A stretch of 64,000 nucleotides of DNA from a virus. Lineage: Duplodnaviria > Caudoviricetes. Numbering within the stretch: the stretch's first letter is position 1; each line of letters opens with the position of its first letter. Location: IMG/VR virus record IMGVR_UViG_3300033075_001228; one strand, given 5' to 3'. The notes beneath the pieces are model-generated. The model was not told where the DNA came from, made no database searches, and was given only the letters and a program-made list of their open reading frames with translations. Made by a program: the position numbers and the translations under genes. This document shows positions 3,701 through 40,533 of the stretch, piece after piece.

Positions 3701-4823
3701 CGTTGTTTCGGTCACAAAGGTAGTGTTGGATAAACCGGTGCCTGTGTACGACCTCGAGGTTGAAAATTGGCACAACTTTGCAGTTGACACAGGCGTCGCA
3801 GGTGGATCAATTATAGTCCACAACAGCAAGGCGACGTTGGCTCAAGAAGATATTCGTTTTTCTCGAACCATCAATGTCATCCAACGAACGATGCTGGCTG
3901 AGCTCAACAAGCTGGCGATCATTCATCTTTATGCGCACGGCTACGACGGCGAAGACCTTCAAAACTTTACGTTGCGGCTGTCGAACCCATCATCCGTCGC
4001 GCAGCAGCAGAAGCTTGAGCTGTGGAGGGCAAAGTTTGAGATCGCTGGCTCCCGTCCAGAGGGCGTTGTTTCAAACGAGTTTATCATGAAAGAAATCTGG
4101 AACCTTGACGACGACAAGATCCAGAAGATCATGCAGCAGCAGATCGATGAAAAGATCTTTGCAACCAAGCTTGAGTCAGCTGGAGCCGGCGGAGAAGGAG
4201 AGGCAGGCGGCGGAGAAGATTTGTTTGGTGGTGATCTAGGCGGCGCGGGCGGCGGCGGCGAGGCCGGAGAGGTGACGCCCGAAGAAACTGGCGGAGGTGA
4301 AGAAGAAACTCCACCTGAAGAAAATGCGGGGGAAGAGCCTGAAGAAGAAGCTGACCCCGGCGTCCAGCTTTTGACGTCAGGTGACGAGGAAGACGATCGA
4401 TTTCTTCAGCTCGCTAGCGACAATGATGGGCCAGCGATCAAGCCACAGAACCAGCTGGATAAAGCTCTTTACAACAGAGGCCGCCGTCGCACCCACGGCG
4501 CATCTAAGACGCATTTTCCTGACTTCGTCAAGATGACAGGCAACGATAGCGAGTCAATGAAGGACCCGACAGACAGCGGCTGGATGAAATCGGTCGTCAG
4601 CAACCCGTTAGGCGAGTCATACGCTGATAGGCCATCATCGCGGTTTAACGGCCTGTCTCCTGACATGTATGCAACGTTACGAAAGATGTCAGAGAAGCTT
4701 GGCATCGTTAACAAGCGTTCATCTGTGTTGTCAGAAGGAGTTGACGTACAAGATGAGATTGACGTTAGCCTAAAAGACGATGAAACTGATCTTGGCGACG
4801 ACTGGGATATCTCCGATGAGTAG
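3..4823 (+). CDS. gp20: Portal protein (T4 gp20-like), 5'-truncated by the window, interrupted by three inteins
   Basis: Extein motifs typical of T4-like portals: TPEIAAALDIYADE, LIEDAMLVYRVVRAPERRVFYIDV, EDYFIPVRG, IDTLAGG, KLFAALKIP, EDIRF. The frame is open from the window start, so Met27 is internal. It is followed by protease, scaffold and MCP genes. Confidence 0.95.
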   Translation, partial: FKKNHATWMRDNAPTSRRDVTFARILETAERVGFSMPAISSALDVTWTLIYDRLVSNGFSTFEKFVKAYSAGQRESNLSPGKPGLLTRDLSIDLIKRNLVADDTKRSLCVKLGCTVNVLDKFLDRRAQTTWSKLRASLGFKDEESSIVKNVSRRARSGGRPKGSITSGITFQHVCNAYTPGLTRVRLAKKLKTSASVVMRALGDAGYRKYSVFQKTYDNCKVVSVEYVGEMPLYDLTVDGYKNFATDSVISHNTPEIAAALDIYADETWAQDEKGRALHVYSDNEKIKEVLEDLFYNTLNVEFAGRSWVRNLVKYGDFFLFNDISPEYGVVNAFPVPVNEIEREENFDRDDPFAVRYRWVTLGNRTLENWEITHFRLLGNDMFLPYGSSIIEPARRIWRQLILIEDAMLVYRVVRAPERRVFYIDVANVPPENVPMYVEEQRRNLRTNQVIDNQSGRVDLRYNPLPIHKDTPIPLLDGTTMTIEALSRKMNEEVGWVPWVYSVQDKTQKLVPGKVIWCGKNYTATTLIKVWLDDGSYVTTAPEHPFVMRDGSAKRADGLLVGDSLMSAYRDLNNRGYERIIEPSGDRISTHVMVARDVYAEKWSMTDQPVVHHKHPEQKETNKRNNSPDNLEVMNFWEHKKMHAEHCELTLNTPERLAVRAVQMAEYNRSAQHRARTIEINKRDRKAERMGEAYNGTDLHKAHNENRRQGQHKSWDANKAKRSEAMQWIIPNEVVGFAFEAIKANPKIGREELTSAIRNDASMCSLLKQANAQNNRSLLRFHVNAIVSKLVRTKCIPDSNYRTFRQFAANNSPPVNHQVVKVEILENVSDDVYCMTVVGPNHEDDRHNFAVNGLGGEIPDNQLKSLVFVWNSVDEDYFIPVRGSDTGTRIDTLAGGQNTAAVEDVAYIQKKLFAALKIPRAYLGYDELLSCLTADAKVPLLSGESVGVHDLAQLDWSKKQDVWVYSADPTTGCIVPGRVTRAWLTRETNELYDVVIDDGGCVRVTANHPFLCRDGVYRRADELTPGQSLMPLYRKLSSLDDGDFQNGYEKVLDNESGSWVYTHRLVANAGLVADDSSRLNEHSYVVHHVNHNKRDNSPNNLIKMGKRAHALYHATQAKNLLADYSRDRLRAVMRTDQYKAKHKVGVKRAWDVDDGSRRLNVAMNNAKHKQKNVDLAAARAVANTCENRNEFYRKIGLTYTGFRNACKRQGVNHGEWLTSVFGNKKLGIKRNHCVVSVTKVVLDKPVPVYDLEVENWHNFAVDTGVAGGSIIVHNSKATLAQEDIRFSRTINVIQRTMLAELNKLAIIHLYAHGYDGEDLQNFTLRLSNPSSVAQQQKLELWRAKFEIAGSRPEGVVSNEFIMKEIWNLDDDKIQKIMQQQIDEKIFATKLESAGAGGEGEAGGGEDLFGGDLGGAGGGGEAGEVTPEETGGGEEETPPEENAGEEPEEEADPGVQLLTSGDEEDDRFLQLASDNDGPAIKPQNQLDKALYNRGRRRTHGASKTHFPDFVKMTGNDSESMKDPTDSGWMKSVVSNPLGESYADRPSSRFNGLSPDMYATLRKMSEKLGIVNKRSSVLSEGVDVQDEIDVSLKDDETDLGDDWDISDE
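1398..2615 (+). mobile_element. Intein 2 in portal (Pro1, class-3-like, HNH endonuclease domain)
   Basis: Interrupts the portal motif RYNPL|SVDEDYF. Starts PIHKDTPIPLLDG, block B TTAPEHPF, HNH VVHHKHP...NKRNNSPDNL, block F DVYCMTV, ends VFVWN|S. Confidence 0.88.
2793..3824 (+). mobile_element. Intein 3 in portal (canonical Cys1, HNH endonuclease domain)
   Basis: Starts CLTADAKVPLLSG, block B VTANHPF, HNH VVHHVNHNKRDNSPNNL, block F PVYDLEV, ends IIVHN|S. Flanks rejoin as ELLS-SKATLAQEDIRF. Confidence 0.93.
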
Positions 4824-4840
4824 TTACGTCATTATGATGC

Positions 4841-4847
4841 ATAGTTA
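4841..4847 (+). promoter_or_regulatory. Putative late promoter ATAGTTA (first copy of a recurrent ATAnTTA motif)
   Basis: The same motif recurs upstream of many structural genes (see finding). Confidence 0.55.
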
Positions 4848-4902
4848 CAGATGATTGACCAGGTGTTGTCGATTGAACTGTAACGCGAAGGGTTGACCAG
4901 TA

Positions 4903-10810: not shown

Positions 10811-12706
10811 ATGAAGTTTTTCACTATCGATCAGTTGGCAGCTGGCATCAAGGACCGCCACGTCGGCGCCGAGCGTGCTCGCCTTGTTGAGAAGTGGAGC
10901 CGCACCGGCCTGCTTCGCGGCCTCGACGGCAACAGGCGTGAGACGATGGCACAGCTGCTTGAGAACCAGGCAGCACAGGTCCTCAAGGAGTCAAACGCTT
11001 TGTCGACCGGCGGCGGTGCGCTTGCATCGTCCGGACAGGTCCAGGGCTTCTCGAACATCGCTTTCCCGATCGTTCGACGCGTGTTCGGCGGCCTTGTCGC
11101 CAACGAGCTCATCTCGATCCAGACGATGTCCCTGCCTTCAGGCCTCATCTTCTACATCGACTACACCTATGGTTCGAACGTAGGCACCACGCAGTCAGAC
11201 TCAGGCACGTTTGAGACGTACTCTCGCGGCCAGTCGATCTACAACAACCCAGCGGGCCGCGGCGTGCAGTCAGGCTCTTTGGCGACCGGCGGTATGTACG
11301 ACCTCGTCAACGTCGGCTACACCAAGGTCCACTCTGGAACCATGGGCGTCTCCGGTAGCACCGCAGACGTCGGTGCATGGGGCGGCGTCAACGGCGATAC
11401 CTGGTCTTCAGGCCTTGTCCTCTCGGACTCTAGCCAGATGTCAGGCACCAACGGACGTATGTTGGGCTACGATCCTCAGGTCGAGGTTGACCTCGGTTCG
11501 AACGTTCTTGACGTTACCTTTGCACACCTGTCTGTTTCTCAGATCCAGACTGTGATTCCAAAGGGTGACTTCCTCGCTGTTGAGCAGATCTCGATCTTTG
11601 CGTTTGCAACGACCAATGGTGCAGTCGCATGGGGCGAGAGCTACCAGTCAGGCCGCGGCGTCATGAACCTTCGCCGCCTCAACAAGCGCGGAAACTGGAG
11701 CGGCTCGGTCTTCACGCCGGCTCCGCTCAACGGAACGCACATCCAGGTGGTCCTTAGGATCACCCCAGGCAGCACGGTTCCGGTCCTTGGCGCGACCACG
11801 AGGCTAAGCATGGCAATCGCTGACGAGGTTCAGCGTACTGACGGCACTGCGGGCGGCATCGGCTCGACCTTGACTGTTCCGTCGTTCGAGTCTGACTTTG
11901 GTACGTCACCGACCCCGGTGATCCCAGAGATCGACATCAAGATCGAGTCGATCGCAATCACCGCTACGTCGCGAAAGCTGCGTGCAAGGTGGTCGCCGGA
12001 AATGGCACAGGACCTCAACGCGTACCACGCCCTGGACGCCGAGGTCGAGCTGACCAGCATCCTCAGCGAGCAGATCGCTCTCGAGATTGACCGAGAGATC
12101 CTCAACGACCTGGTACTCCAGGCAAACGGCGCGAACATGTACTGGAGCCGTGCACCGGGCAGGTTCGTCAACAAGCTGACCGGCCAGGCACAGACCTTGG
12201 CATCAAGCCTCAGCATCGGTCCGCAGTTCACCGGCACCATCCGTGAGTGGTATGAGGGCCTGATCGAGACCGTCATCGACGTGGCAAACACCATCCATCG
12301 TAAGACCTTCCGAGGCTCTGCGAACTTCATGGTGACTGGCCCAGACGTCTGCACCATCCTGGAGAGCTCTGTGCTCTACAAGCCGAAGTTTTCGCTCGAC
12401 GGCGAAGGCCAGGTCGGTTCTCCGTTTACCATCGGAGCCGAGGCGATCGGCACGGTGTCGAACAGGTTCACGGTCTACAAGGATCCTTACTTCCCAAGGA
12501 ACAAGATCCTCGTCGGCTACAAGGGCGGAAGCTACCTGGAGACAGGCTATGTGTACGCTCCGTACGTCCCGCTGATCGTCACGCCGACGATCTTCGCTCC
12601 GGAGGACTTCACGCCTCGTAAGGGTGTGATGACCAGGTACGGAAAGAAAATGGTCAGGAGTGACTTTTATGGGACTGTGACCGTACTTGACATGAACATA
12701 ATTTAA
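10811..12706 (+). CDS. gp23: Major capsid protein (T4 gp23-like)
   Basis: QLLENQ, FPIVRRVF, RKLRARWSPEMAQDLNAYH, ALEIDREI, GYVYAPYVPL, PRKGVMTRYG; strong C/G third-position codon bias. Confidence 0.97.
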   Translation: MKFFTIDQLAAGIKDRHVGAERARLVEKWSRTGLLRGLDGNRRETMAQLLENQAAQVLKESNALSTGGGALASSGQVQGFSNIAFPIVRRVFGGLVANELISIQTMSLPSGLIFYIDYTYGSNVGTTQSDSGTFETYSRGQSIYNNPAGRGVQSGSLATGGMYDLVNVGYTKVHSGTMGVSGSTADVGAWGGVNGDTWSSGLVLSDSSQMSGTNGRMLGYDPQVEVDLGSNVLDVTFAHLSVSQIQTVIPKGDFLAVEQISIFAFATTNGAVAWGESYQSGRGVMNLRRLNKRGNWSGSVFTPAPLNGTHIQVVLRITPGSTVPVLGATTRLSMAIADEVQRTDGTAGGIGSTLTVPSFESDFGTSPTPVIPEIDIKIESIAITATSRKLRARWSPEMAQDLNAYHALDAEVELTSILSEQIALEIDREILNDLVLQANGANMYWSRAPGRFVNKLTGQAQTLASSLSIGPQFTGTIREWYEGLIETVIDVANTIHRKTFRGSANFMVTGPDVCTILESSVLYKPKFSLDGEGQVGSPFTIGAEAIGTVSNRFTVYKDPYFPRNKILVGYKGGSYLETGYVYAPYVPLIVTPTIFAPEDFTPRKGVMTRYGKKMVRSDFYGTVTVLDMNII

Positions 12707-12836: not shown

Positions 12837-13763
12837 ATGGAAGATAGAACCTGTAGGGAGTGCAACGAGGTGTTCAATGATCCTGAGCAAGTCAGGCGTC
12901 ACTTAAGAAAACATGGGATGACGTTTCAGCAATACTCGCTCCGACATTTTTATGGAGGTGTAGAGCCAACCTGTAGGTGTGGTTGTGGCCAAAAAACGGC
13001 TTGGAATGTGGCATCAAAAGGCTACGCTGAACACATACTAGGTCACCATGCATGGGGACGAAAGAAATCAGACGATGAAAAGCGTCGTATTGGTGAGAAG
13101 AACGCTGCCAATATGAAACGATTTTATGAAGAACACCCTGAACTTGCTGAAGCTCAAGCTTCTTTGATGAGACAACATTTGACACCAGAAATTGAAGAGC
13201 AACGCATTGAAGCAACTCGCCAAGCATACGCAGCCATGTCAAGTGCCGATAAACAAAGTTTTCGTGATAGAACGCGGCAACGCTGGATTGCTGGTGAGAT
13301 GAATGAGCCGCACGCAAAGGCAGCAGAAACATTCAAACAGAAGTCAACTAATGGTGATTACGATTTCTCAGAGCGGAACGAGAAGCTATCGAAAGTCATC
13401 TCTCAGAAATACGTCGATGGCACGTGGGAGTTTACAAAGGGTACATACGTCTCGACTAAATCTGGTCGCGAGTGCTACTATCGTTCCTCGTGGGAGTTGC
13501 TACTGATGCAGGAGTTGGATATTGATCCTGATGTCGCTGATTGGGAGAGCGAGTTCACATCAATTCCGTACGTATTTGATGGTTCACAACATCGCTATGT
13601 TCCAGACTTCAAGGTTGTGAGATCAGCGATCACACAGATCGTGGAGGTCAAGCCAAAGAACTTACGAAATATAGAGCGTAACATCGCTAAGCGTCAAGCA
13701 GCGCTAGCATATTGTGAGCGATTGGGGTGGCAGTATGTTGAGTGGGAACCAGCGACGAATTGA
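12837..13763 (+). CDS. TnsA-like PD-(D/E)XK endonuclease with N-terminal C2H2 finger and CxCGC module (probable free-standing homing endonuclease)
   Basis: CREC...HLRKH, PTCRCGCG, YRSSWE, HRYVPDF, VEVKP. Confidence 0.75.
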   Translation: MEDRTCRECNEVFNDPEQVRRHLRKHGMTFQQYSLRHFYGGVEPTCRCGCGQKTAWNVASKGYAEHILGHHAWGRKKSDDEKRRIGEKNAANMKRFYEEHPELAEAQASLMRQHLTPEIEEQRIEATRQAYAAMSSADKQSFRDRTRQRWIAGEMNEPHAKAAETFKQKSTNGDYDFSERNEKLSKVISQKYVDGTWEFTKGTYVSTKSGRECYYRSSWELLLMQELDIDPDVADWESEFTSIPYVFDGSQHRYVPDFKVVRSAITQIVEVKPKNLRNIERNIAKRQAALAYCERLGWQYVEWEPATN

Positions 13764-30652: not shown

Positions 30653-33600
30653 ATGACCGAACAGACTTTTAGGTCTCCGAACTTTTACGAACGTGAGATC
30701 GACCTCTCAGCCCCACAGCTGCGCGGCCCCGTTGGAACACCTGCCGGTGTCATCGGAACAGCCAACAAAGGCCCTGCATTCGTGCCTGTCACAGTTGCTA
30801 ACTTTGACGAGTTTGTTGCTACGTTTGGCAACCTTGACCCGAAGAAGTTTGGTCCTTATGCTGTCAATGAATTTCTAAAGCATCGTTCAGCGTTGACATA
30901 CCTGAGGGTGCTAGGCGCGGGAGCAAACAGCACTGACACGCACATTGCAACCACAGTTCAAAAGGGTCGGGTCAACAACGCAGGCTTCTACCTCGAGGGG
31001 TCGGCAGCCGCGCACGACAGCAGGGGCCGCCACGTAGGCGCAGTCCAGTTTTTGGCGGCCCGTCACATGTTGCAGACGAACGAAGCGTTTGGCCTGCCGA
31101 TGTTCACCGACAACCGCAGCTTTAGCGGCGGCTTTGCAAACGTTGTTCGCGGCATGGTTTTGATGGCGTCTGGAGCCAGGATGATGGTTCTTGACGGCAA
31201 CGAGAGTGCGGTCGGAGCGTTCACCGCGGCTGGCCCAGACGACCTTGCAACGCCTGTAGGCGGCAAGTTTAAGCTCGTCATCTCGTCTACGCTTGGCAAC
31301 GGATTCGTCAACACTGACAATAACCCTGGCGTCAGGATCCTGACCGCGTCGCTGGACCCATCGTCATCAGACTACTTCGGAAAGATCCTGAACACAGATC
31401 CAGACAGGTTTGTCCAAGAGCAGCACCTGCTCTACAGCGACTTTGCTGTCGACGACGAGCTTGCGACAGCTGTGTCTGTCGCTGTGCTGTCGGGTTCTGA
31501 GTCGACAAGCTCGACCTCAGGTGACACGAGCCTGGTCTTTAGGAAGGCGTTCGGAGCGTTTGACACCAGGTACCAGACGCCGCGTTCAACGATGTTTATC
31601 TCGCAGCCGTTCGGTGCGACAGAGTACGACCTGTTCTACTTCGAGTCGCTGGACGATGGAGAGTTTGCGAACAAGCTCTACAAGATTTCGATCACAAACA
31701 TCAAGGCTTCTCTTGATGAGGCCAAGCCGTATGGCACCTTCACAGTGCAGATTAGGGACTGGAATGACACAGACGCTAACCCGTTGGTCCTAGAGTCGTT
31801 CCCTAACTGCTCGCTTGATCCTCAGGCAGAGAACTATGTCGCTAAGCTAATCGGCGATCGAAAGGTCTACTACAACTTTGACTCATCGCTGCTCGAGGAA
31901 CGTCGCGTAGTGATGACAGGCAAGTACCCGAACGTTTCCAAGCTGGTTAGGGTTCGGGTCTCTGACCAGGTAGAAAACGCGCTCGTTCCTCAAAAGTCTC
32001 TGCCATTTGGTTTCAGGGGCATCGAGGTGCTGAAGACAAACGATTCGTTGCTCGACAGCAACTCATCTGTTCCACGAATTGTTGGCGTCCTGGGGGTTGG
32101 CTCAGGCTCAGCGTTGTCAGGTTCGATCCTTCCTCCTCTTCCGTTCCGGTTTAAGGTGACAAAGGGTGAGCTTCCAACGTCAACAGCTTTTGAAGGCCAG
32201 CCGGGTCCGTCTGAGCTTGCAAACAGCCAGCTAACGTGGGGCATTAAGTTTGAGCGTAACACTGTTCCGCTGAACCCAAACCTGTCATCTGAAAAGAACA
32301 AGCTGCTTGAGTCGTACACAAAGTTCTTGGGTATCAAGAAGCTTGACGTGCTGGTGACTGGTTCCGGCGCAGACCAGTTCAATGATAATAAGTTCACCCT
32401 AGCAAAAGTGGCGTTCTCAAACACAAGCATCACGCACCTGACTGGAACGATCAACGACCACATGCGAGAGGCTGCATACCTCCGTAACGGTGTCCTGGAC
32501 AACTCGCAGTACACGATCAACACCAGCATCGGCCGCCGAATCACGTTTGCAACAGTCTTGGCACAGGACTCGGCTGCCAACTTCAACAAGTGGTCTGCCT
32601 TCACAAAGTTCACCAACATGATGTATGGTGGCTATGACGGCGTCAACATCCTTGACCGTGACGCCAAGCGGCTTAACGACAAGTCAACGTCGTTTGACGC
32701 TGGCGGTGGAGCTGAATCAAGCTATGTAGCGCCAGGAATGCTGATCAATCCAAACGGGGCAGGTCAGTCAAACTCAACCGTGCTTTCATACACAACTGCG
32801 ATTGACATCATGACAGACCCGATGATGGTCAAGACAAACATCCTTGCCATCCCGGGAATCAGGGAATCGTTCATCACAGATTATGCGATGAAGAAGGTCC
32901 GTGACTACGGGCTTGCATACTATGTCATGGACATCCCGTCATATGATGACTCATCAAACAGGCTCTATGACGACTCGACTGCGCGCCCGGACGTAGACAA
33001 GACTGCGTCGGCGTTTGACACTCGCGCAGTTGATAACAACTACGCTGGCACATACTTCCCTAACGTCTTCATCGACGACCAGACGAACAGGCGCCGTGTA
33101 AAGGTTCCTTCGTCAGTCGCAGCGATGGGTGCATTGGCGTTTAACGACAGGGTGACGTACCCATGGTTTGCGCCAGCAGGATTCAACAGGGCTTCGTTGG
33201 ACTTTGTGAACAACGTTGAGGTAAGGCTTAACGTTTCCGACAGGGACACCCTGTATGACTCAAGGATCAACCCGATCGCAACATTCCCAAGGCTTGGCTT
33301 TGTCATCTACGGCCAGAAGACGTTGCAGGTTGCAAAGTCGGCGCTTGACAGGGTCAACGTGAGGCGCCTGCTTCTTGAGGTGAAGAGGATCATCATCGAC
33401 ATTGCAAACGCAATGGTCTTTGAGCAAAACACCCCAGCTGTCAGGAACAAGTTTGTCTCAGACGCTGTTCTTCAGCTAGGCCTGATCCAGGCACAGGCTG
33501 GAATTGAAGCGTTCAGGGTGATCTGCAATGAGACCAACAACTCTCAGGAAGACGTGGACCTCAACAAGCTAAACGGTCGTATCGTTGTTGTTCCAACGCG

Positions 33601-33661
33601 TGTGATCGAGTTCATTGCGATCGACTTCATTATCACGAACGCGGGAGTCCAGTTCGTTTAA
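30653..33661 (+). CDS. gp18: Tail sheath protein 1
   Basis: SPNFYEREIDLS, KGPAFVP, PWFAPAGFNR, INPI, GQKTLQ, ALDRVNVRRLL, FEQN, EFIAIDF. Confidence 0.95.
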   Translation: MTEQTFRSPNFYEREIDLSAPQLRGPVGTPAGVIGTANKGPAFVPVTVANFDEFVATFGNLDPKKFGPYAVNEFLKHRSALTYLRVLGAGANSTDTHIATTVQKGRVNNAGFYLEGSAAAHDSRGRHVGAVQFLAARHMLQTNEAFGLPMFTDNRSFSGGFANVVRGMVLMASGARMMVLDGNESAVGAFTAAGPDDLATPVGGKFKLVISSTLGNGFVNTDNNPGVRILTASLDPSSSDYFGKILNTDPDRFVQEQHLLYSDFAVDDELATAVSVAVLSGSESTSSTSGDTSLVFRKAFGAFDTRYQTPRSTMFISQPFGATEYDLFYFESLDDGEFANKLYKISITNIKASLDEAKPYGTFTVQIRDWNDTDANPLVLESFPNCSLDPQAENYVAKLIGDRKVYYNFDSSLLEERRVVMTGKYPNVSKLVRVRVSDQVENALVPQKSLPFGFRGIEVLKTNDSLLDSNSSVPRIVGVLGVGSGSALSGSILPPLPFRFKVTKGELPTSTAFEGQPGPSELANSQLTWGIKFERNTVPLNPNLSSEKNKLLESYTKFLGIKKLDVLVTGSGADQFNDNKFTLAKVAFSNTSITHLTGTINDHMREAAYLRNGVLDNSQYTINTSIGRRITFATVLAQDSAANFNKWSAFTKFTNMMYGGYDGVNILDRDAKRLNDKSTSFDAGGGAESSYVAPGMLINPNGAGQSNSTVLSYTTAIDIMTDPMMVKTNILAIPGIRESFITDYAMKKVRDYGLAYYVMDIPSYDDSSNRLYDDSTARPDVDKTASAFDTRAVDNNYAGTYFPNVFIDDQTNRRRVKVPSSVAAMGALAFNDRVTYPWFAPAGFNRASLDFVNNVEVRLNVSDRDTLYDSRINPIATFPRLGFVIYGQKTLQVAKSALDRVNVRRLLLEVKRIIIDIANAMVFEQNTPAVRNKFVSDAVLQLGLIQAQAGIEAFRVICNETNNSQEDVDLNKLNGRIVVVPTRVIEFIAIDFIITNAGVQFV

Positions 33662-33754: not shown

Positions 33755-36700
33755 ATGGCACAGCTAAAGTTTGGAAGCGCAGGGGTTGCGGCAAAGGAGA
33801 TTGACCTATCGGGTCCAGTTACGCAGCAGCCAGTTGGCGTTCCAGCAGGCGTCGTCGGCACAGCGCTTCAGGGGCCGGCATTTGTGCCGGTTACCGTAGG
33901 GCTGCTGAGCGACTTTTACGCAAAGTTCGGTAAGACTGACGGCAAAAAGTTTGGGCCGCTAGCGGTGTCTGAATGGCTACGAAACGCAGGTTCTGTTACG
34001 TACCTTCGGGTGTTGGGCGTCGGTGACGGTCTAGAACGCAATGCTGACGGTTCAGTGACGAACGCTGGCTTCACGGTGGGTGAGAACCAACCTCGTGCTG
34101 TCGATGGCGTCATGTTTGGCAACCCATACGCTACGTCTGGAAGCAACAGCGTTCCGGGCAGAACGTACTTTTTGGGTGCATTCATGTCTGAGTCTGCTGG
34201 TTCAACTGTCTTTTCAGACGCGGGCCTGTTAGGGGTAGGTGGTATCACACCGTATGGCACCGGCTCAGCGTTGCCGATCATTCGTGGCGTCTTGATGGCA
34301 GCCTCAGGCGTCATCCTCCGGCTGTCTTCGTCGGTCACTGCGTCTTCTGCGCCTGCTTCTACGTTGGTGGCCACCGAGCAGAGCTCACAGGGTGCACACT
34401 TTGGTGCAATTGTTTTGCTCGATGGTACCGTTGCTAAGCAGGACTTTGTGCTTCTATTGAACGGTCACAAGGGAACTGACTCGCTGTACCCGAACGTGAT
34501 CACGGCCTCGTTTGACATGACGTCGCCGAACTACTTTGCAAACGTCCTCAACAAGGATCCGCTGAAGTACCAGCAGGCGGGTCACTACCTGTATGCGCAT
34601 TGGGACCTTCACCCTTCGACCGCTGTTGTCACCGGCTCTGGCCTTCTTTCCACGGCTTCTGGCTCCGGGGCCTCAACTGCGCCTAAGGTCGGCGCTGAGA
34701 TCGCTGCGTTCATCACGACCGGTTCGACCGCAAGGAACGTCGGCAGCTCGGTGGTGCCAAACTACGAGTCGTTTACCGATAGGTTTGCACACGCTAAGTC
34801 ACCGTGGGTCATCTCGCAGCGCTTTGGCGGAGTAGCAACAGACCTGTTTAGGCTACACGCCCTTGACGCTGGGGCTGGCATCTCGACAAACTTCAAGATT
34901 TCGATTGAAAACATCGTTCCTTCGACTGACCCTGCGAACCAATACGGAAGCTTTGACCTGATCGTCCGAGATTGGAACGACAACGACGGCAACGTAAAGG
35001 CGCTCGAGCAGTGGAGAGGCGTGAACCTGGACCCAAGCTCAGACAGGTACATTGCTAAGGTCATCGGTGACGCACACATCTTCTACAACTTTGATCAGTC
35101 TGAGGCAGGACAAAAGATCATCGTCGACGGCAACTATCCAAACAAGTCTAATCTTGTCAGGGTTGAGGTCTCGACCGACGTTGACAACATGACCGTTGAC
35201 CCAACGGCGTTGCCTTTTGGCGTCAGGGGCGTCAGCCACCTGATGACGTCTGGCTCGGCCCCGATGTCCAGCCCGCCAGTTACGTCTAGCGCTGGCGTGT
35301 TGACGTCCAACCTGTTGAAGAGGGTGATTGAGGCTCCTCTGCCGCTAAGGAAGAACATCACGCAGGGTTCAGGCGCTAAGCTTAGCGTCAACCCGTTGCT
35401 TTACTGGGGCGTTCGTTTTGAGCACATCACCAGCTTAACGACTCCAAATGCCAGCACGTTGCAGGATAAGTCGCTTCTAAGCTTTGCAAAGTACTTCCCT
35501 GACTTCGCGGAGACAAACCAGAACTTCGTTGTGGGTGACAACGCCGGAACGCCAGCCACAGCTGAGAACGGCGAGATTGACGCGGACAGGTTCTGCAGAA
35601 ACGTCTTCTCCCTGGAGAACATCCAGGTCGTCACCAACTCTACCGGCTTGGCCGACTCGGCTGAGTGGGACCAGGCAACGTATGTCCGAGACGGCAACAT
35701 CTCGGCGAACGCCTCTGCCAAGACGCGAAGGCTCGCTTCAAGCGACTTCATCCAGGCAAACCGTCGTTTCATCAAGTACTCTTTCCTCATGCAGGGAGGG
35801 TTTGACGGCGTCAACCTCTTTGACAAGGATGAGTCTGAGATCAACAACAACGCTGTCGTTGCTGACATGAATGATGCAAACCGCGGCCGACAGGACGGAC
35901 CGTCGGTCAGGGCGTACATCAAGGCGTTGGACATCATGAAAAACGTGGTGAACACGGACATCCAGCTGCTGGCCATTCCAGGCATCAGGCACCCAGTCGT
36001 CTCAGACTCAGCGATTAGCTCGGTTGAAGAGCGTTTTGATGCGTTGTACCTCATGGACATCGAGCAACTCGATAACGCGGGTGACAACGTGATCTCTGAT
36101 AGCCAGCTACCTTCGGTCACGCTCACCGTCAACAACTTCCGTGACAGGGCGCTTGACAGCAGCTTCGCTGCAGCATACTTCCCTGACGTGGTGATGCCAG
36201 ATCCAAACACGAAGAGCAACGTCGTCGTGCCGCCTTCGGTCGTAGTCCTCGGCGCCTTGGCGCTTAACGACGCTGTCGGTCACCCGTGGTTTGCTCCAGC
36301 AGGAACAACGCGTGGCGCGCTGTCGACGACCCTTGAGGCCCGCGTGCAGCTGTCGAAGACAAACATGGACAACATGTATGACGTCGGCATCAACCCTCTC
36401 GTTGCGTTTCCAGGGAACGCAACCTCTGGAACCAACCCAAAGGGCGGCGTTGTGGTGTGGGGTCAGAAGACGCTACAGGCTGCTGCGAGCGCCCTTGACC
36501 GTGTGAACGTCAGGCGTCTCCTCATCGACATCCGTCGCCAGGTTCGTGAGATCGCAAACACGATCATCTTTGAGCCAAACAGGGAGTCCACGCTCGCCAA
36601 GTTCTCAGCTGCGGTCACGCCCCGACTGCAGAGGATCCAGGCGCTGTCTGGCCTTGAAAGGTTTAGGGTCATCATCGATTCGTCGACAACGACCCAGGCT

Positions 36701-36808
36701 GATGTGGAGAACAATACCATTCGCGGGAAAATCTTCGTGCAACCGACCAAATCGATTGAGTTTGTTTCGCTTGACTTCGTTGTCACAAACAACATCAACC
36801 AAGCATAA
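33755..36808 (+). CDS. gp18: Tail sheath protein 2 (paralogue)
   Basis: EIDLS, GPAFVP, PWFAPAG, GQKTLQ, ALDRVNVRRLL, FEPN, QPTKSIEFV. Confidence 0.95.
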   Translation: MAQLKFGSAGVAAKEIDLSGPVTQQPVGVPAGVVGTALQGPAFVPVTVGLLSDFYAKFGKTDGKKFGPLAVSEWLRNAGSVTYLRVLGVGDGLERNADGSVTNAGFTVGENQPRAVDGVMFGNPYATSGSNSVPGRTYFLGAFMSESAGSTVFSDAGLLGVGGITPYGTGSALPIIRGVLMAASGVILRLSSSVTASSAPASTLVATEQSSQGAHFGAIVLLDGTVAKQDFVLLLNGHKGTDSLYPNVITASFDMTSPNYFANVLNKDPLKYQQAGHYLYAHWDLHPSTAVVTGSGLLSTASGSGASTAPKVGAEIAAFITTGSTARNVGSSVVPNYESFTDRFAHAKSPWVISQRFGGVATDLFRLHALDAGAGISTNFKISIENIVPSTDPANQYGSFDLIVRDWNDNDGNVKALEQWRGVNLDPSSDRYIAKVIGDAHIFYNFDQSEAGQKIIVDGNYPNKSNLVRVEVSTDVDNMTVDPTALPFGVRGVSHLMTSGSAPMSSPPVTSSAGVLTSNLLKRVIEAPLPLRKNITQGSGAKLSVNPLLYWGVRFEHITSLTTPNASTLQDKSLLSFAKYFPDFAETNQNFVVGDNAGTPATAENGEIDADRFCRNVFSLENIQVVTNSTGLADSAEWDQATYVRDGNISANASAKTRRLASSDFIQANRRFIKYSFLMQGGFDGVNLFDKDESEINNNAVVADMNDANRGRQDGPSVRAYIKALDIMKNVVNTDIQLLAIPGIRHPVVSDSAISSVEERFDALYLMDIEQLDNAGDNVISDSQLPSVTLTVNNFRDRALDSSFAAAYFPDVVMPDPNTKSNVVVPPSVVVLGALALNDAVGHPWFAPAGTTRGALSTTLEARVQLSKTNMDNMYDVGINPLVAFPGNATSGTNPKGGVVVWGQKTLQAAASALDRVNVRRLLIDIRRQVREIANTIIFEPNRESTLAKFSAAVTPRLQRIQALSGLERFRVIIDSSTTTQADVENNTIRGKIFVQPTKSIEFVSLDFVVTNNINQA

Positions 36809-37511
36809 GAATAGTTGGGTTTAGATGATTGTTTACTGCCTAACAAACTTGATCAACGGCAAGCAATACGTTGGTCAAACGACCAAACCAGTTGAAGACC
36901 GTGTAAAGCAGCACGTTAGGGTTGCAAAACGTATGTCACGTAATCCAATTCATTGTGCTATCAGAAAATACGGAATTGATCAGTTTGCTGTTGCAGTCCT
37001 GCAATCGTGTAACACGCGTCAGGAGCTTAACGAAGCTGAGATTCGATGGATCAGCTTGTTAGAGACACGAAAGCTTGGATATAACCTTTCTGAGGGTGGC
37101 TCTGGGGTTAAAGGTCGAGGAATTTGGAAGCACACAGCAGAAAGCAAACAAAAGATTGGCGATAAAAATCGTGGCAAGGTTAGGTCTCTTGAAACTCGAA
37201 AGCTGATCAGCGAATCTGTTCATGCTGCCATGACGGACGAGCTTCGTTCGCTGATCTCAGCATCAACACGCTGCGCGCTAACTTTCGAGGTTCGTAGCAA
37301 AATTGAAAGAAACAATTACGCTAAACGTCGAAAGCAAATAGCTCAGCTAACGATCGAAGGACAGCGCATTGCTTTATTTAAGTCTGCGACAGAGGCAGCT
37401 GCCGTAACGAATACAAACAAAGGCAATCTTTGCGCTTGCGCCCGTGGCGAATGTTTTCAAGCGGGCGGCTTTCGGTGGGAGTATGTCACAAACAACATTA
37501 ACCAGGCATGA
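36781..37511 (+). repeat. 28-bp imperfect direct repeat (36781-36808 and 37484-37511) bracketing the GIY-YIG gene
   Basis: tgtcacaaacaacatcaaccaagcataa vs tgtcacaaacaacattaaccaggcatga; 25/28 identical; both encode VTNNINQA*. Confidence 0.92.
36825..37511 (+). CDS. GIY-YIG homing endonuclease (NUMOD3 and NUMOD1-like domains)
   Basis: IVYCLTNLINGKQYVGQT, GYNLSEGG, HTAESKQKIG, FKSATEAA...AGGFRWEY. Ends with a copy of the sheath C-terminus. Confidence 0.9.
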   Translation: MIVYCLTNLINGKQYVGQTTKPVEDRVKQHVRVAKRMSRNPIHCAIRKYGIDQFAVAVLQSCNTRQELNEAEIRWISLLETRKLGYNLSEGGSGVKGRGIWKHTAESKQKIGDKNRGKVRSLETRKLISESVHAAMTDELRSLISASTRCALTFEVRSKIERNNYAKRRKQIAQLTIEGQRIALFKSATEAAAVTNTNKGNLCACARGECFQAGGFRWEYVTNNINQA

Positions 37512-37525
37512 TGAAAGATAACGTG

Positions 37526-37846
37526 ATGAAGCTTACGAAAACACAGCTCGTGAAGATCATTCGGGAGACTGTCAGAAAGAAGATGAAAGTTGTCTCTGAG
37601 GTTTCACCGCCCAGGGGAACGATGCTTTCTACTCGCGCCCCCGCCGCGGCGGCGCTCGCACATCCCAATGTTGCAGGAGCGATCGAAAACTTAAAGGACG
37701 CAATGATGGAGGCGCTTGAGGAGCAGGTCTCACGTTATGCGCTCGAGGAGGTTGACCAGATCTTGCATACTGAGTTTCACAAGGAGCTTTATGACCTTGT
37801 TGAGGAGTGGTTGAACACCCTTGTGGAGAACGCTGAGGGAGTATGA
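37526..37846 (+). CDS. Small protein, MKLTKTQLVKIIRE family
   Basis: Shared N-terminal motif; acidic helical body. Confidence 0.7.
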   Translation: MKLTKTQLVKIIRETVRKKMKVVSEVSPPRGTMLSTRAPAAAALAHPNVAGAIENLKDAMMEALEEQVSRYALEEVDQILHTEFHKELYDLVEEWLNTLVENAEGV

Positions 37847-38181
37847 AGTTAACAAAGTTTCAGCTAAGGCAGCTCATCCGTGAAGCAATCGCAAAGAAGG
37901 TTGTCAAGGAAGGTCGCCTCAAAAACCCTGTCGTTGACCTCGTTGGCGGTGCGCTTGCGCAGCAGGTGAACGAGATGTTTGAAAACGCCAGCGAAACGCT
38001 TGAGAACAACGCATATGAGATGGTGCTGGGAACGCCAGACGCTGACGCTGCGTTTCCAAGCCGTTACGAGGACGTTGTAGAGTATTCTCGTGCATGTGCG
38101 GAGGTTGCTGTCAGCGACCTAAAGGATCAGCTGGAAGGGATTGCTTCAGGCATTCTACAGGAGCTCATGAAGCCAGTTTGA
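37843..38181 (+). CDS. Small protein, MKLTKFQLRQLIRE family
   Basis: Shared N-terminal motif; ATGA overlap with the upstream gene. Confidence 0.72.
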   Translation: MKLTKFQLRQLIREAIAKKVVKEGRLKNPVVDLVGGALAQQVNEMFENASETLENNAYEMVLGTPDADAAFPSRYEDVVEYSRACAEVAVSDLKDQLEGIASGILQELMKPV

Positions 38182-38236
38182 ATAATGATCGCTATCCAAC
38201 CGGTGGATTGGCTAACAGGCTGATGAAGAGTTTTCT

Positions 38237-38273
38237 AGGGCCCTACAAAGATGCGTAGGGCCCTTATTTGTTT
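38237..38273 (+). terminator. Terminator hairpin between convergent genes
   Basis: Stem AGGGCCCTAC/GTAGGGCCCT followed by TATTTGTTT. Confidence 0.6.
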
Positions 38274-39934
38274 GGTTGCAGCATCTTAAGGGTGACGTTG
38301 TTGCAGCCAAAGATCTTTACCACCTTTGCTTCAGCGGCGACCTCAGCCTCTGTCATGCCGCGGGAGCTGTCTGCCCTGTAACGAAACCTGTTGAACCTGC
38401 TGTGGAAGTCAGTCCACCAAAACCTGGGCGTCGTTTCTCCGACAACCGTCCACCCTGAGGCGATCCAAGACGCAGGACCACCTAGCCGAGTGTCAACATA
38501 CGTGATCATTCCTTGTTGTCCTTGGTTGGCTGTCCACGCCAACGCAGCCTTCGACAGCCTCGACAGTCCACCCGGGACTACCAGATCACGTTTGGTAGCT
38601 AACCTTGCGATCTCCATCAACTTAGAGTGCGTCTTGTGGAACGGATGCCTTAGGCTCATCACCATGACGAGCTCACCGTTGTGCTTAAGCCCGATGGCGT
38701 GCGATGCCTTCGTGTCGCCGTCAAGGTGGTTTTCATCAAAGAAAAGGCGACGTTCTTCAGTGGGAACGTCAACGACCTCGCAGGTCCTGGCCCCAACGCG
38801 GGAAGACATCCCGAGCATGTGCCGGATCATTGCCTCAACGAGGGGCCTACGTTCCGCCCATTCGTCCTGAAAAACATGGAACAGCTTGATCCCAGCCGCC
38901 TTGCAGGCAGCGGACTTGTTCTGGTGGTATACGTCAGACTTGTGGATGGAGCAGTGCCAGTATAAGCCGTTGTATTCGATAGCAACAGAGCGTGACGGGA
39001 TGAATACGTCGAGCTCTGCCCCTCGCTCTGGGCCTGCGATCATCTTTCTTGTGTTTCTCACCACCTCAACGCCGAGGGACTCAACGTATGCTGCGATCTC
39101 TCCTTGTGCCGCTGACCCGGCAGGGTCGCAGGAGTAGCAACGATGGTGCTGCAGCTGCCGCAGCGAGCTGTACGTCCTTGTCTTGCATGAGATGCATTCT
39201 ACGTAGATGTTTGTCGTTGCGTCGTTTACGTAGCCCTCGGCGCTCAGCAGCTTGAGGTTTCCGCCGCCCTCGATCCTTTTCCTAATCTCCTCGATGTTTA
39301 GTCGCTTAAGCTCATCGAGCCGTGTCCTGACCGCTGCGGTCTTGTGTGCCACAGACACAGCCTCTGCCATGGAGGCCACCCTTTCGTCAGTCTCCTTCGT
39401 GAGGCCCTTTGACCAGGGCGTGTATCTTCCTTGTTGGTAGGCGTCTTTTAAAGTTGTTGCAGCCGCGGCCACCCTCTCGTCGGTCTCCTTCGTGAGGCCC
39501 TTTGACCAGGCAACGATTTCGTCATCGGCGAAGGCTTTCTTTCGTCCTTCGCTGGTGGCCTTTGCCCTAGCGGCCACCCTCTCGTCGGTCTCCTTCGTGA
39601 GGCCCTTTGACCATGAAGCCTGGCCGCGCCAGTTGCTGCCGCGGGTCTGGGCGATCTCAGCGGCCTTTTCGTTGTCGTATACGCTATAGATGCTTGCGTT
39701 GTGTCCCTTGATCATCGAGCTGTAGCCGACCTTGTAGTTGATCCACTTTGTTTCTTTCCCACACCCGCACCTGCACGTCGCGGCCCCGTTCGCCTTGTCG
39801 AAGGCTTCCTTGGCTGACACGCCGTGTTCGGCCTCTATGTGTCGTTCGACTGCTGTGATACGTTTTGAGCTGAACCCACACAGCCCGCAGACGGTAGGCC
39901 CAATCGTTTGCTTCTTGGTTGGCATTGTCAGCAT
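38264..39934 (-). CDS. Hef-like homing endonuclease: Zn finger, WSKGLTKETDERV repeats, Vsr/DUF559-like nuclease, C-terminal GNAT-like domain
   Basis: CGLC...H...H, TCRCGCG, ELDVFIP...IEYNGLYWH, HVFQDEW, EIARLA...GGLSRL...ITYVD. Only substantial minus-strand gene; ATAGTTA on the minus strand just upstream. Confidence 0.8.
   Translation of the reverse strand: MLTMPTKKQTIGPTVCGLCGFSSKRITAVERHIEAEHGVSAKEAFDKANGAATCRCGCGKETKWINYKVGYSSMIKGHNASIYSVYDNEKAAEIAQTRGSNWRGQASWSKGLTKETDERVAARAKATSEGRKKAFADDEIVAWSKGLTKETDERVAAAATTLKDAYQQGRYTPWSKGLTKETDERVASMAEAVSVAHKTAAVRTRLDELKRLNIEEIRKRIEGGGNLKLLSAEGYVNDATTNIYVECISCKTRTYSSLRQLQHHRCYSCDPAGSAAQGEIAAYVESLGVEVVRNTRKMIAGPERGAELDVFIPSRSVAIEYNGLYWHCSIHKSDVYHQNKSAACKAAGIKLFHVFQDEWAERRPLVEAMIRHMLGMSSRVGARTCEVVDVPTEERRLFFDENHLDGDTKASHAIGLKHNGELVMVMSLRHPFHKTHSKLMEIARLATKRDLVVPGGLSRLSKAALAWTANQGQQGMITYVDTRLGGPASWIASGWTVVGETTPRFWWTDFHSRFNRFRYRADSSRGMTEAEVAAEAKVVKIFGCNNVTLKMLQPNK
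39374..39613 (-). repeat. Three near-identical 42-bp coding repeats (WSKGLTKETDERVA)
   Basis: Copies start at 39374, 39467 and 39572 (periods 93 and 105 nt, in frame). Confidence 0.9.
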
Positions 39935-40044
39935 CTAACTATTCATGCAGCCTGTTGTTTTGTGCGTTTTAAACGGACAAAATTGGCGATGACTCCTAAT
40001 TAGCATCGGGTGGTCATCACGCACCACCAAGGAGCTTTTTGAAC

Positions 40045-40533
40045 ATGGCTGAGACGCTTGATGTTACATCAATGTTGAATAACAAATTCGAACCAAAGCG
40101 GAAAAACCGCTGGGTCCTCATGATTGAAGGCATCGATGCCTACATCATCAAGACAGCGGCCCGACCGACGATGACGACCGAGGAGGTTGAGATCCCGTTC
40201 ATCAACTCCCGACGTTACCTTGCTGGCCTGTCAAAGTTCAACACCATGGCCGTGACGCTGCACGATCCGATCGCACCGTCGGGCGCCCAGCAGGTCATGG
40301 AGTGGGTTCGCCTGCACTTTGAGAGCGTGTCAGGACGGGCAGGCTACGCTGACTTCTACAAGCGTGACATCCAGCTGAAGGTGTTGGACCCCGTAGGGAC
40401 AGTTGTGGAACTTTGGGATATAAAGGGTGCTTTCATCACGGAGGCAAACTTCGGTGACCTGACGTACGAAGACGGAGGCGTAGCAGAGATTTCGCTAACG
40501 CTCCGCTTCGATAATGCGGTTCTGCAATTCTAA
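40045..40533 (+). CDS. gp19: Tail tube protein (gp19-like)
   Basis: FEPKRKNRW, LHDPIAPSGAQQVMEW, YKRDI, LDPVGTVVELW.IKGAF, ISLTLRFD. Confidence 0.9.
   Translation: MAETLDVTSMLNNKFEPKRKNRWVLMIEGIDAYIIKTAARPTMTTEEVEIPFINSRRYLAGLSKFNTMAVTLHDPIAPSGAQQVMEWVRLHFESVSGRAGYADFYKRDIQLKVLDPVGTVVELWDIKGAFITEANFGDLTYEDGGVAEISLTLRFDNAVLQF

Follow-up and report, generated by a model that had tools for sequence, protein, structure and literature searches.

A GIY-YIG homing endonuclease gene that ends in a duplicated piece of a tail-sheath gene in one lineage of T4-like phages

In a stretch of 64,000 nucleotides (nt) of the virus record IMGVR_UViG_3300033075_001228 (Duplodnaviria; Caudoviricetes), hereafter called the window, the second of two tandem tail-sheath genes is followed by a gene for a GIY-YIG homing endonuclease that ends in a second copy of the 3′ end of the sheath gene. 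The endonuclease reads in frame into this copy, from which it takes its last eight residues and its stop codon. The gap behind the sheath gene is a recurrent landing site for GIY-YIG genes, which are patchily distributed among the relatives of this phage, while the junction between endonuclease and duplicated sheath end was seen in a single lineage. We infer, with some reserve, that this junction probably goes back to a one-off illegitimate crossover between a genome occupied by the endonuclease gene and an empty one, by which the two were fused in frame.

The duplicated sheath end and the endonuclease gene

The two sheath paralogues lie at 30653-33661 and 33755-36808, and both match Pfam sheath models. 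The second gene (sheath 2) is complete: it encodes 1017 amino acids, has a match to Pfam Phage_sheath_1C at residues 912-1011 (E = 6.6e-7), and ends in ...DFVVTNNINQA, followed by its own TAA stop codon. More than 100 full-length orthologues of sheath 2 have the same end point, ...DFVV[TAS]NN.... The last eight sheath codons and the TAA form repeat copy A (36781-36808), which is located on the 5′ side of the endonuclease gene. A spacer of 16 nt (36809-36824) leads from the sheath stop to the ATG of the endonuclease gene (36825-37511; 228 amino acids), the frame of which is different from that of the sheath. The endonuclease ends in ...GGFRWEYVTNNINQA and a stop; its last eight residues and the stop are provided by repeat copy B (37484-37511), a sheath-type 3′ end with a TGA stop codon, in frame with the endonuclease. 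Copy B is followed by a spacer of 14 nt of the empty-site type (37512-37525) and by a small, fast-evolving gene (37526-37846; here called the next gene), which starts with MKLTKTQL and has an N-terminus that is conserved in relatives. All these features are on the plus strand.

Copies A and B are identical at 25 of 28 nt (in a repeat search of the window, 36781-36806 matched 37484-37509 at 92 %). Each of them specifies VTNNINQA and a stop within the open reading frame (ORF) to which it belongs, and the three differences between them (atc/att, caa/cag, and taa/tga) are all silent. The shared coding part begins at 36782 (GTC), 36781 being a shared preceding T. The distance between the copies is 703 nt, and they are, therefore, in different absolute frames. 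The preliminary description of this DNA, according to which the endonuclease ORF reads into a second sheath 3′ end and uses its stop, is thus correct in this respect.

Such a repeat is rare in the window. Only four pairs with at least 25 of 28 matches within 1 kb were found over the full 64 kb, three of which belong to one array at 39360-39613, and no such pair was present in 20 shuffled sequences. At the protein level, sheath 2 and the endonuclease were the only pair sharing at least six of the last nine residues among 211 stop-to-stop ORFs of at least 80 amino acids. Upon local alignment of the two tails, none of 2000 shuffles scored as well.

An assembly error at a short repeat, named in the preliminary description as something that would refute it, can be considered excluded because four other sequencing runs yielded the structure in independent assemblies. 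The contigs L242-L245, each from one of these runs, contain both copies with the same three differences and are 99.87-100 % identical to the window over 2.3-4 kb. In addition, with three differences between them and a length below that of typical assembly words, the copies make an artefact extremely improbable.

The endonuclease carries a GIY-YIG domain at residues 2-82 (PF01541, E = 2.5e-10; 40.9 bits, with a cut-off of 22.6). A family profile made of the window ORF and its eight nearest relatives matched the catalytic domain of I-TevI (1MK0/1LN0, E = 2e-11); a direct phmmer search of solved structures with the endonuclease gave no match, so that the family profile was needed to see the relationship. 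Residues R26, E72, and N87 align with R27, E75, and N90 of I-TevI and are invariant in the family alignment. The catalytic motifs are intact, and the protein is predicted to be active as a nuclease. Downstream of the catalytic domain, a NUMOD3-like match (residues 102-129; 18.4 bits, below the cut-off of 20.4) and a match to the NUMOD-like DNA-binding part of I-HmuI (residues 184-219; 19.5 bits, below the cut-off of 27) were found, together with a weak profile match to the C-terminus of I-HmuI (E = 0.074). The G+C content at third codon positions (GC3) is 0.42 in the endonuclease gene versus 0.62-0.67 in both flanking genes. Judged by these sequence features, the gene appears to be an intact homing endonuclease gene of the seg type that is free-standing and was acquired by horizontal transfer.

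The end of the endonuclease departs from that of its family exactly at the repeat. An end of the form ...GGF.W.Y is conserved throughout the family, and the native end is W-x-Y-[V/I] followed by at least five variable residues. In the family alignment, as well as in tblastn comparisons with phage endonucleases, the match to other GIY-YIG endonucleases does not extend beyond Y220/V221, exactly where the repeat starts.

Two other kinds of element were considered and rejected. A group I intron around the endonuclease gene was dismissed, as no intron was detected in 36000-38500 by Rfam at E values up to 1. An intein was dismissed as well: the sheath is complete and the endonuclease lies after its stop in a separate frame. 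Splicing is not needed because the sheath ORF stops exactly where its orthologues stop.

Occupied and empty alleles of the site

Scans of viral and metagenome collections with the sheath protein yielded 160 loci, and exact-protein look-ups added further ones. After dereplication, 86 sheath 2 junctions with at least 150 nt of downstream sequence were left. Eighty of these are empty, with the sheath stop followed by a short spacer and the next gene, and six contain a GIY-YIG gene. In L247 and L251, which were found separately from the 86, a GIY-YIG gene is present at the same spot. The carriers of a GIY-YIG gene after sheath 2 are, in total, the lineage of the window (L242-L245), L240, L241, L246, L247, L008, and L251. 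In a sheath tree built on the last 400 residues, the carriers fall within one subclade of 16 members, interspersed with 12 empty alleles, which calls for at least three gains or losses. This patchy distribution is the usual pattern of homing endonuclease genes.

The endonuclease family of the window occupies the same site in L240 (78-80 % identical), L241 (54 %), L246 (46 %), and L247 (46 %). The same gap is filled by two different GIY-YIG lineages in L008 (~4040-4850) and in L251 (2382-3167), the latter ~33 % identical to the endonuclease of the window and preceded by a TGA sheath stop and a spacer of 32 nt. The gap after sheath 2 is, therefore, a recurrent landing site, used by at least three GIY-YIG lineages.

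Several peculiarities of individual relatives were noted. GIY-YIG genes also occur upstream of sheath 2, apparently between the two sheath paralogues, in L008 (102-860) and L009 (1065-1778; the same as L165), and both ends of sheath 2 thus seem to be landing sites. Sheath 2 itself is interrupted by ~460-550 nt in five relatives (L056, 444-994; L059, 3427-3965; L060, 444-982; L208, 4390-4850; L223, 4465-4943). The interruption falls between query residues 126-157 and 131-168 and could be an intron, a small intein, or some other inserted element. In L251, a contig from an NCBI metagenome, the sheath gene was called at only 511 amino acids with a minus-strand gene directly upstream (region 1-2349), which may reflect a rearrangement or a truncated sheath.

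In the empty alleles, where recognisable among the junctions listed, the next gene starts with MK[IL]T..QL at a distance from the sheath stop of a few to ~26 nt. The closest empty alleles are L250 (93 % identity over the last 168 amino acids of the sheath; tail VTNNINQQT), L252 (89 %; tail VTNNINEA), and L192. The homologue of the next gene in L250 (816-870) is apparently frameshifted at a run of A residues, possibly as a result of a sequencing error or of a real break. A DNA search of the phage collection with 35800-38200 gave no match, and all phage matches at the protein level were below 60 % identity, too distant to be of help with the junctions. Exact-protein look-ups with the next gene and the sheath returned the same occupied structure or nothing, and a homologue search with the next gene returned only the gene itself.

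On its left side, the junction in L240 and L241 is that of the window: the sheath TAA, a spacer of 16 nt of similar sequence, and the ATG of the endonuclease gene. It had been proposed that the element entered the last codons of the sheath gene, which does not agree with the intact sheath stop and 16-nt spacer that precede the endonuclease gene in the window, L240, and L241 alike. On the right side, the alleles differ. The endonuclease ends in WKYIECNVT in L240 and in WKYISKDRSS in L241, and unrelated tails are also present in L246 and L247. A sheath-like tail was not found in any of these four (tail-versus-tail local alignments were no better than shuffles, p > 0.1). From copy B rightwards, that is, with a sheath-type tail, a stop, 14 nt, and MKLTK..., the window is of the empty-allele type, with a spacing and context as in L192, L250, L252, and many others. 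The placement of the downstream copy as a native sheath end, 14 nt before the gene at 37526, agrees in this way with that of the sheath stop in empty relatives, which bears out the preliminary description on this point. The only new junction is that of Y220 of the endonuclease with copy B, and it was not seen in any other allele.

As four carriers of the same family lack the duplication at the same site, it represents a one-off junction and not the invasion strategy of the element. The idea that the element brings a replacement end and captures the old one is partly right for the lineage of the window and fails as a general route of entry. It could be rescued by assuming that the duplication is a general invasion device, the downstream copy of which was later lost or worn away in the other carriers. 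Invasion of this type is known from mobile endonuclease ORFs in fungal mitochondria (PMC3630166), and the highly conserved C-terminus of the sheath would be a suitable target. The four carriers of the same family, including L240 with an endonuclease that is 80 % identical, contain no sheath-like trace, however, and in L240 and L241 the endonuclease stop and the start codon of the next gene directly share an ATGA. Moreover, endonuclease identity places L241 outside the pair formed by the window and L240, so that absence of the duplication is the more parsimonious ancestral state. A general device of this kind is accordingly improbable.

Possible origin of the junction

In the crossover that we favour, the occupied genome would have contributed the sheath end, the TAA stop, the 16-nt spacer, and the endonuclease gene up to ...WEY. 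The join to the genome lacking the endonuclease gene would have been displaced leftwards by 27 nt from the homologous position and would have used a microhomology of 1-4 nt (T/GTC; contexts ..TAT GTC.. and ..GTT GTC..). The likely cause would be a next gene that has diverged too fast to serve as a homology arm on the right, leading to a ‘one-sided’ repair of the double-strand break. Downstream, the recipient would have retained its sheath end (copy B) together with the stop and the spacer, in frame by luck or by selection, and as a consequence the endonuclease would have lost its own short tail and now end in the last eight residues of the sheath and the old stop. In T4, homing with homology on one side only indeed gives rise to illegitimate junctions at microhomologies (reviewed in PMC2988022).

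The right-hand homology arm would often be missing because the next gene evolves very fast. Its products in the window and L240 are 49 % identical and its third-position identity is 0.29, which amounts to saturation, while the C-terminus of the sheath is 85-97 % conserved. The differences between the copies also bear on the question. Of all 81 single-base changes that are possible in the nine repeat codons, 17 are silent, and the chance that three out of three are silent is ~0.01 under neutral drift. This is unlikely for an unselected tail and fits two sheath alleles, each of them under selection, that were brought together by recombination.

The same number argues against a local duplication within one genome, by which ~24-27 nt of the sheath end would have been copied onto the end of a resident endonuclease gene through template switching or slippage and would then have drifted, since the tail of the endonuclease would have been free to change. 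Furthermore, a divergence of ~11 % between the copies would have taken long to build up, whereas the five assemblies are identical, and a local event does not predict a spacer of the empty type after copy B at the native distance from the next gene. A local origin would suit a repeat that is short and has its copies only 703 nt apart, as well as the relatives in which the endonuclease gene is resident at the site without the duplication; the internal silent sites, too, point to no foreign copy. On balance, it is an unlikely origin.

An intergenomic origin is also suggested by codon usage. When codons at identical residues in the window and L240 were compared, the fraction of identical codons was 0.59 in the endonuclease gene, 0.65 in the 21 adjoining sheath codons, and 0.33 in the next gene. 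The baseline for sheath codons, taken from L241, which is as AT-rich as L240, is 0.31-0.36. This suggests that the sheath tail and the endonuclease gene were transferred together. The sheath stop is TAA in all five carriers of this endonuclease family, while the close empty alleles use TGA in 39, TAA in seven, and TAG in two cases. Copy A, with its TAA, is of the carrier type in this respect, and copy B has the TGA that is commonest in empty alleles.

Several observations weigh against such a crossover. The best nuclease-free relatives reach 93 % over the last 168 amino acids (L250) and 80-82 % over the gene; since no near-identical one was found, the roles of the copies as donor and recipient sequences are putative. 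When the two silent sites inside the repeat are considered, it is copy A that resembles the empty alleles L250 and L252 (ATC, CAA/GAA), and copy B that resembles the endonuclease-linked sheath tail of L240 (third-position T, CAG). These sites point in the direction opposite to that of the stop codons, and they are probably saturated at this divergence. The association with TAA is partly a matter of base composition, as L240 and L241 come from AT-rich genomes, and L251, which carries a different GIY-YIG family, has TGA. The contrast in synonymous similarity rests on 21 sheath codons, with an intermediate value (0.52) in the second downstream gene, and a co-conversion comparison with L241 and L246 was uninformative, third positions being saturated everywhere. 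Finally, the nuclease activity, the target, and the cut site are putative. That the upstream sheath end was ‘recoded’ and the target site thereby destroyed, as had been surmised, finds no support either: a near-identical empty allele did not turn up, and the internal silent sites leave both copies as candidates for the native one.

A further set of sites near the sheath end was looked at after the fact. The GC-rich carriers, that is, the window (36749-36751, 36761-36763, and 36806-36808) and L246, have AAA, TTT, and TAA where most GC-rich empty alleles have AAG, TTC, and TGA. These states could be co-converted or protective silent changes, with the proviso that the sites were picked afterwards. 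Their candidacy as endonuclease-linked marks was downgraded, as the same states occur in empty relatives that are AT-rich, a property shared by L240 and L241. A dip in GC3 at the sheath end was not significant, since 31 % of the windows of 25 codons in the gene were equally low.

Whatever its origin, the captured tail might have been kept for being useful, which is compatible with the crossover proposed here: it could couple the endonuclease gene to the next gene, serve as a binding site of the nuclease in autoregulation, or act as an excision repeat. An alternative start of the next gene at 37508, in frame, would overlap the endonuclease stop as ATGA (37508-37511), an overlap that is created by the TGA of copy B and recalls those in L240 and L241, albeit as circumstantial evidence. 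I-TevI doubles as an autorepressor that acts on an operator resembling its homing site (PMC2988022). On the other hand, an in-frame junction is expected in one of three cases anyway, the start of the next gene that is conserved in relatives corresponds to 37526 and not to 37508, and the longest exact run between copies A and B is just 15 nt. A useful role of the tail is thus doubtful.

T4 seg enzymes cut hundreds of bases away from their own genes. This is of relevance to a more far-reaching proposal, which we hold to be rather improbable, namely that the capture was selected: it would have kept the native context for termination and re-initiation, the 27-nt repeats would offer a scar-free route for loss and re-gain of the gene, and the left edge of copy B would be the footprint of the cut. 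If the footprint were real, the cut would lie ~28 nt upstream of the insertion point, and a free-standing enzyme would cut beside its own gene, unlike the T4 seg enzymes. The geometry would then be close to that of I-TevI, which cuts 23 and 25 nt from the insertion site (PMC2988022). A CNNNG motif (CTTCG, 36775-36779, plus strand) is present two bases to the left of the repeat as a speculative cleavage motif, recognised from sequence only; so loose a motif would turn up in the vicinity by chance in about one of two cases and is not evidence by itself. Both the motif and the repeat length of 28 nt recall I-TevI and could easily do so by coincidence.

Some features in the surroundings of the locus may be added. 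The next gene (37526-37846) and the gene at 37843-38181 are paralogues, both starting with MKLTK.QL..[IL]IRE. Divergence between relatives is very rapid in the first of them, for which no noteworthy family match was obtained. The repeat array at 39360-39613 consists of three copies of a 56-nt unit, spaced by 93 and 105 nt and 80-100 % identical, and sits inside a minus-strand gene (38264-39934) for a protein of 556 amino acids without a Pfam match. The phage is T4-like, with a gp23-type capsid protein (10811-12706) and a gp19-type tube protein (40039-40533), and further nuclease genes lie beside structural genes. Directly after the capsid gene, 12837-13763 encodes a protein of 308 amino acids with a C2H2 zinc finger and a TnsA-like/endonuclease I-like domain.

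Comparison with known systems

The kind of structure described here is already known from fungal mitochondria and reveals no new mechanism. Mobile endonuclease ORFs with duplicated gene C-termini are present in atp6 of Allomyces macrogynus, in atp6, atp9, cox2, and nad3 of Glomus sp., and also in atp9 of Rhizopus and cox2 of Mortierella (PMC3630166). In these cases the endonuclease ORF is located at the 3′ end of the gene, between an inserted and a native copy of the C-terminus and sometimes with all parts in phase, and the arrangement has been explained by endonuclease-driven transfer between genomes (PMC3630166). The arrangement set out in the preliminary description is not new in kind, and it is not a general splicing-free route into the gene.

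As in the fungal mitochondria, where the ORF in Glomus atp9 also belongs to the GIY-YIG family, an endonuclease ORF is flanked by C-terminal copies that specify the same protein with different DNA. In contrast to the fungal cases, the duplication is found in a phage and measures only 27-28 nt (eight codons plus a stop). Here, the sheath gene retains its stop and the endonuclease a start of its own after a spacer of 16 nt, only the downstream copy is fused to the endonuclease, and the duplication does not travel with the element, being absent from L240, L241, L246, and L247. A polarity of the fungal type, with a foreign upstream copy, is favoured by the stop codons and by the topology of the junction, but not by the two internal silent sites.

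The seg genes of T4-like phages, known for ‘intronless homing’ (PMC2988022), resemble the endonuclease gene of the window in several respects. A GIY-YIG gene fills a short gap between conserved genes, is patchily distributed among relatives, overlaps or tightly abuts its neighbours, has a GC content below that of the host, and adjoins an essential, conserved structural gene. In the open-access text searched, no report was found of a duplication or capture of a neighbour's 3′ end beside a free-standing phage endonuclease gene (seg or mob). I-TevI has a catalytic domain like that of the window endonuclease and a modular layout with a C-terminal DNA-binding part, for which the window endonuclease has putative counterparts. 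Unlike the gene of I-TevI, that of the window is not located in an intron; its C-terminal modules score below the Pfam cut-offs, and the overall identity is low.

For genome annotation, the locus holds a caution, namely that the C-terminal peptide shared by the sheath and the endonuclease carries no functional information. The gap after sheath 2 offers a defined target region in an uncultured phage group. With one-sided homing in T4 the locus has in common a conserved arm, here that of the sheath, a downstream gene that has diverged, and a new junction at 1-4 nt of microhomology. The T4 data come from an engineered intron system, whereas the event proposed here is read from its product alone. 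If the proposal is right, the locus would be a natural phage example of the leftovers of imprecise homing, in which one conserved flank and one fast-evolving flank result in a short duplicated gene end that is fused to a nuclease. It would thus join two fields that are seldom combined: intronless homing and one-sided repair as known from T4, and the duplicated gene ends of fungal mitochondria.

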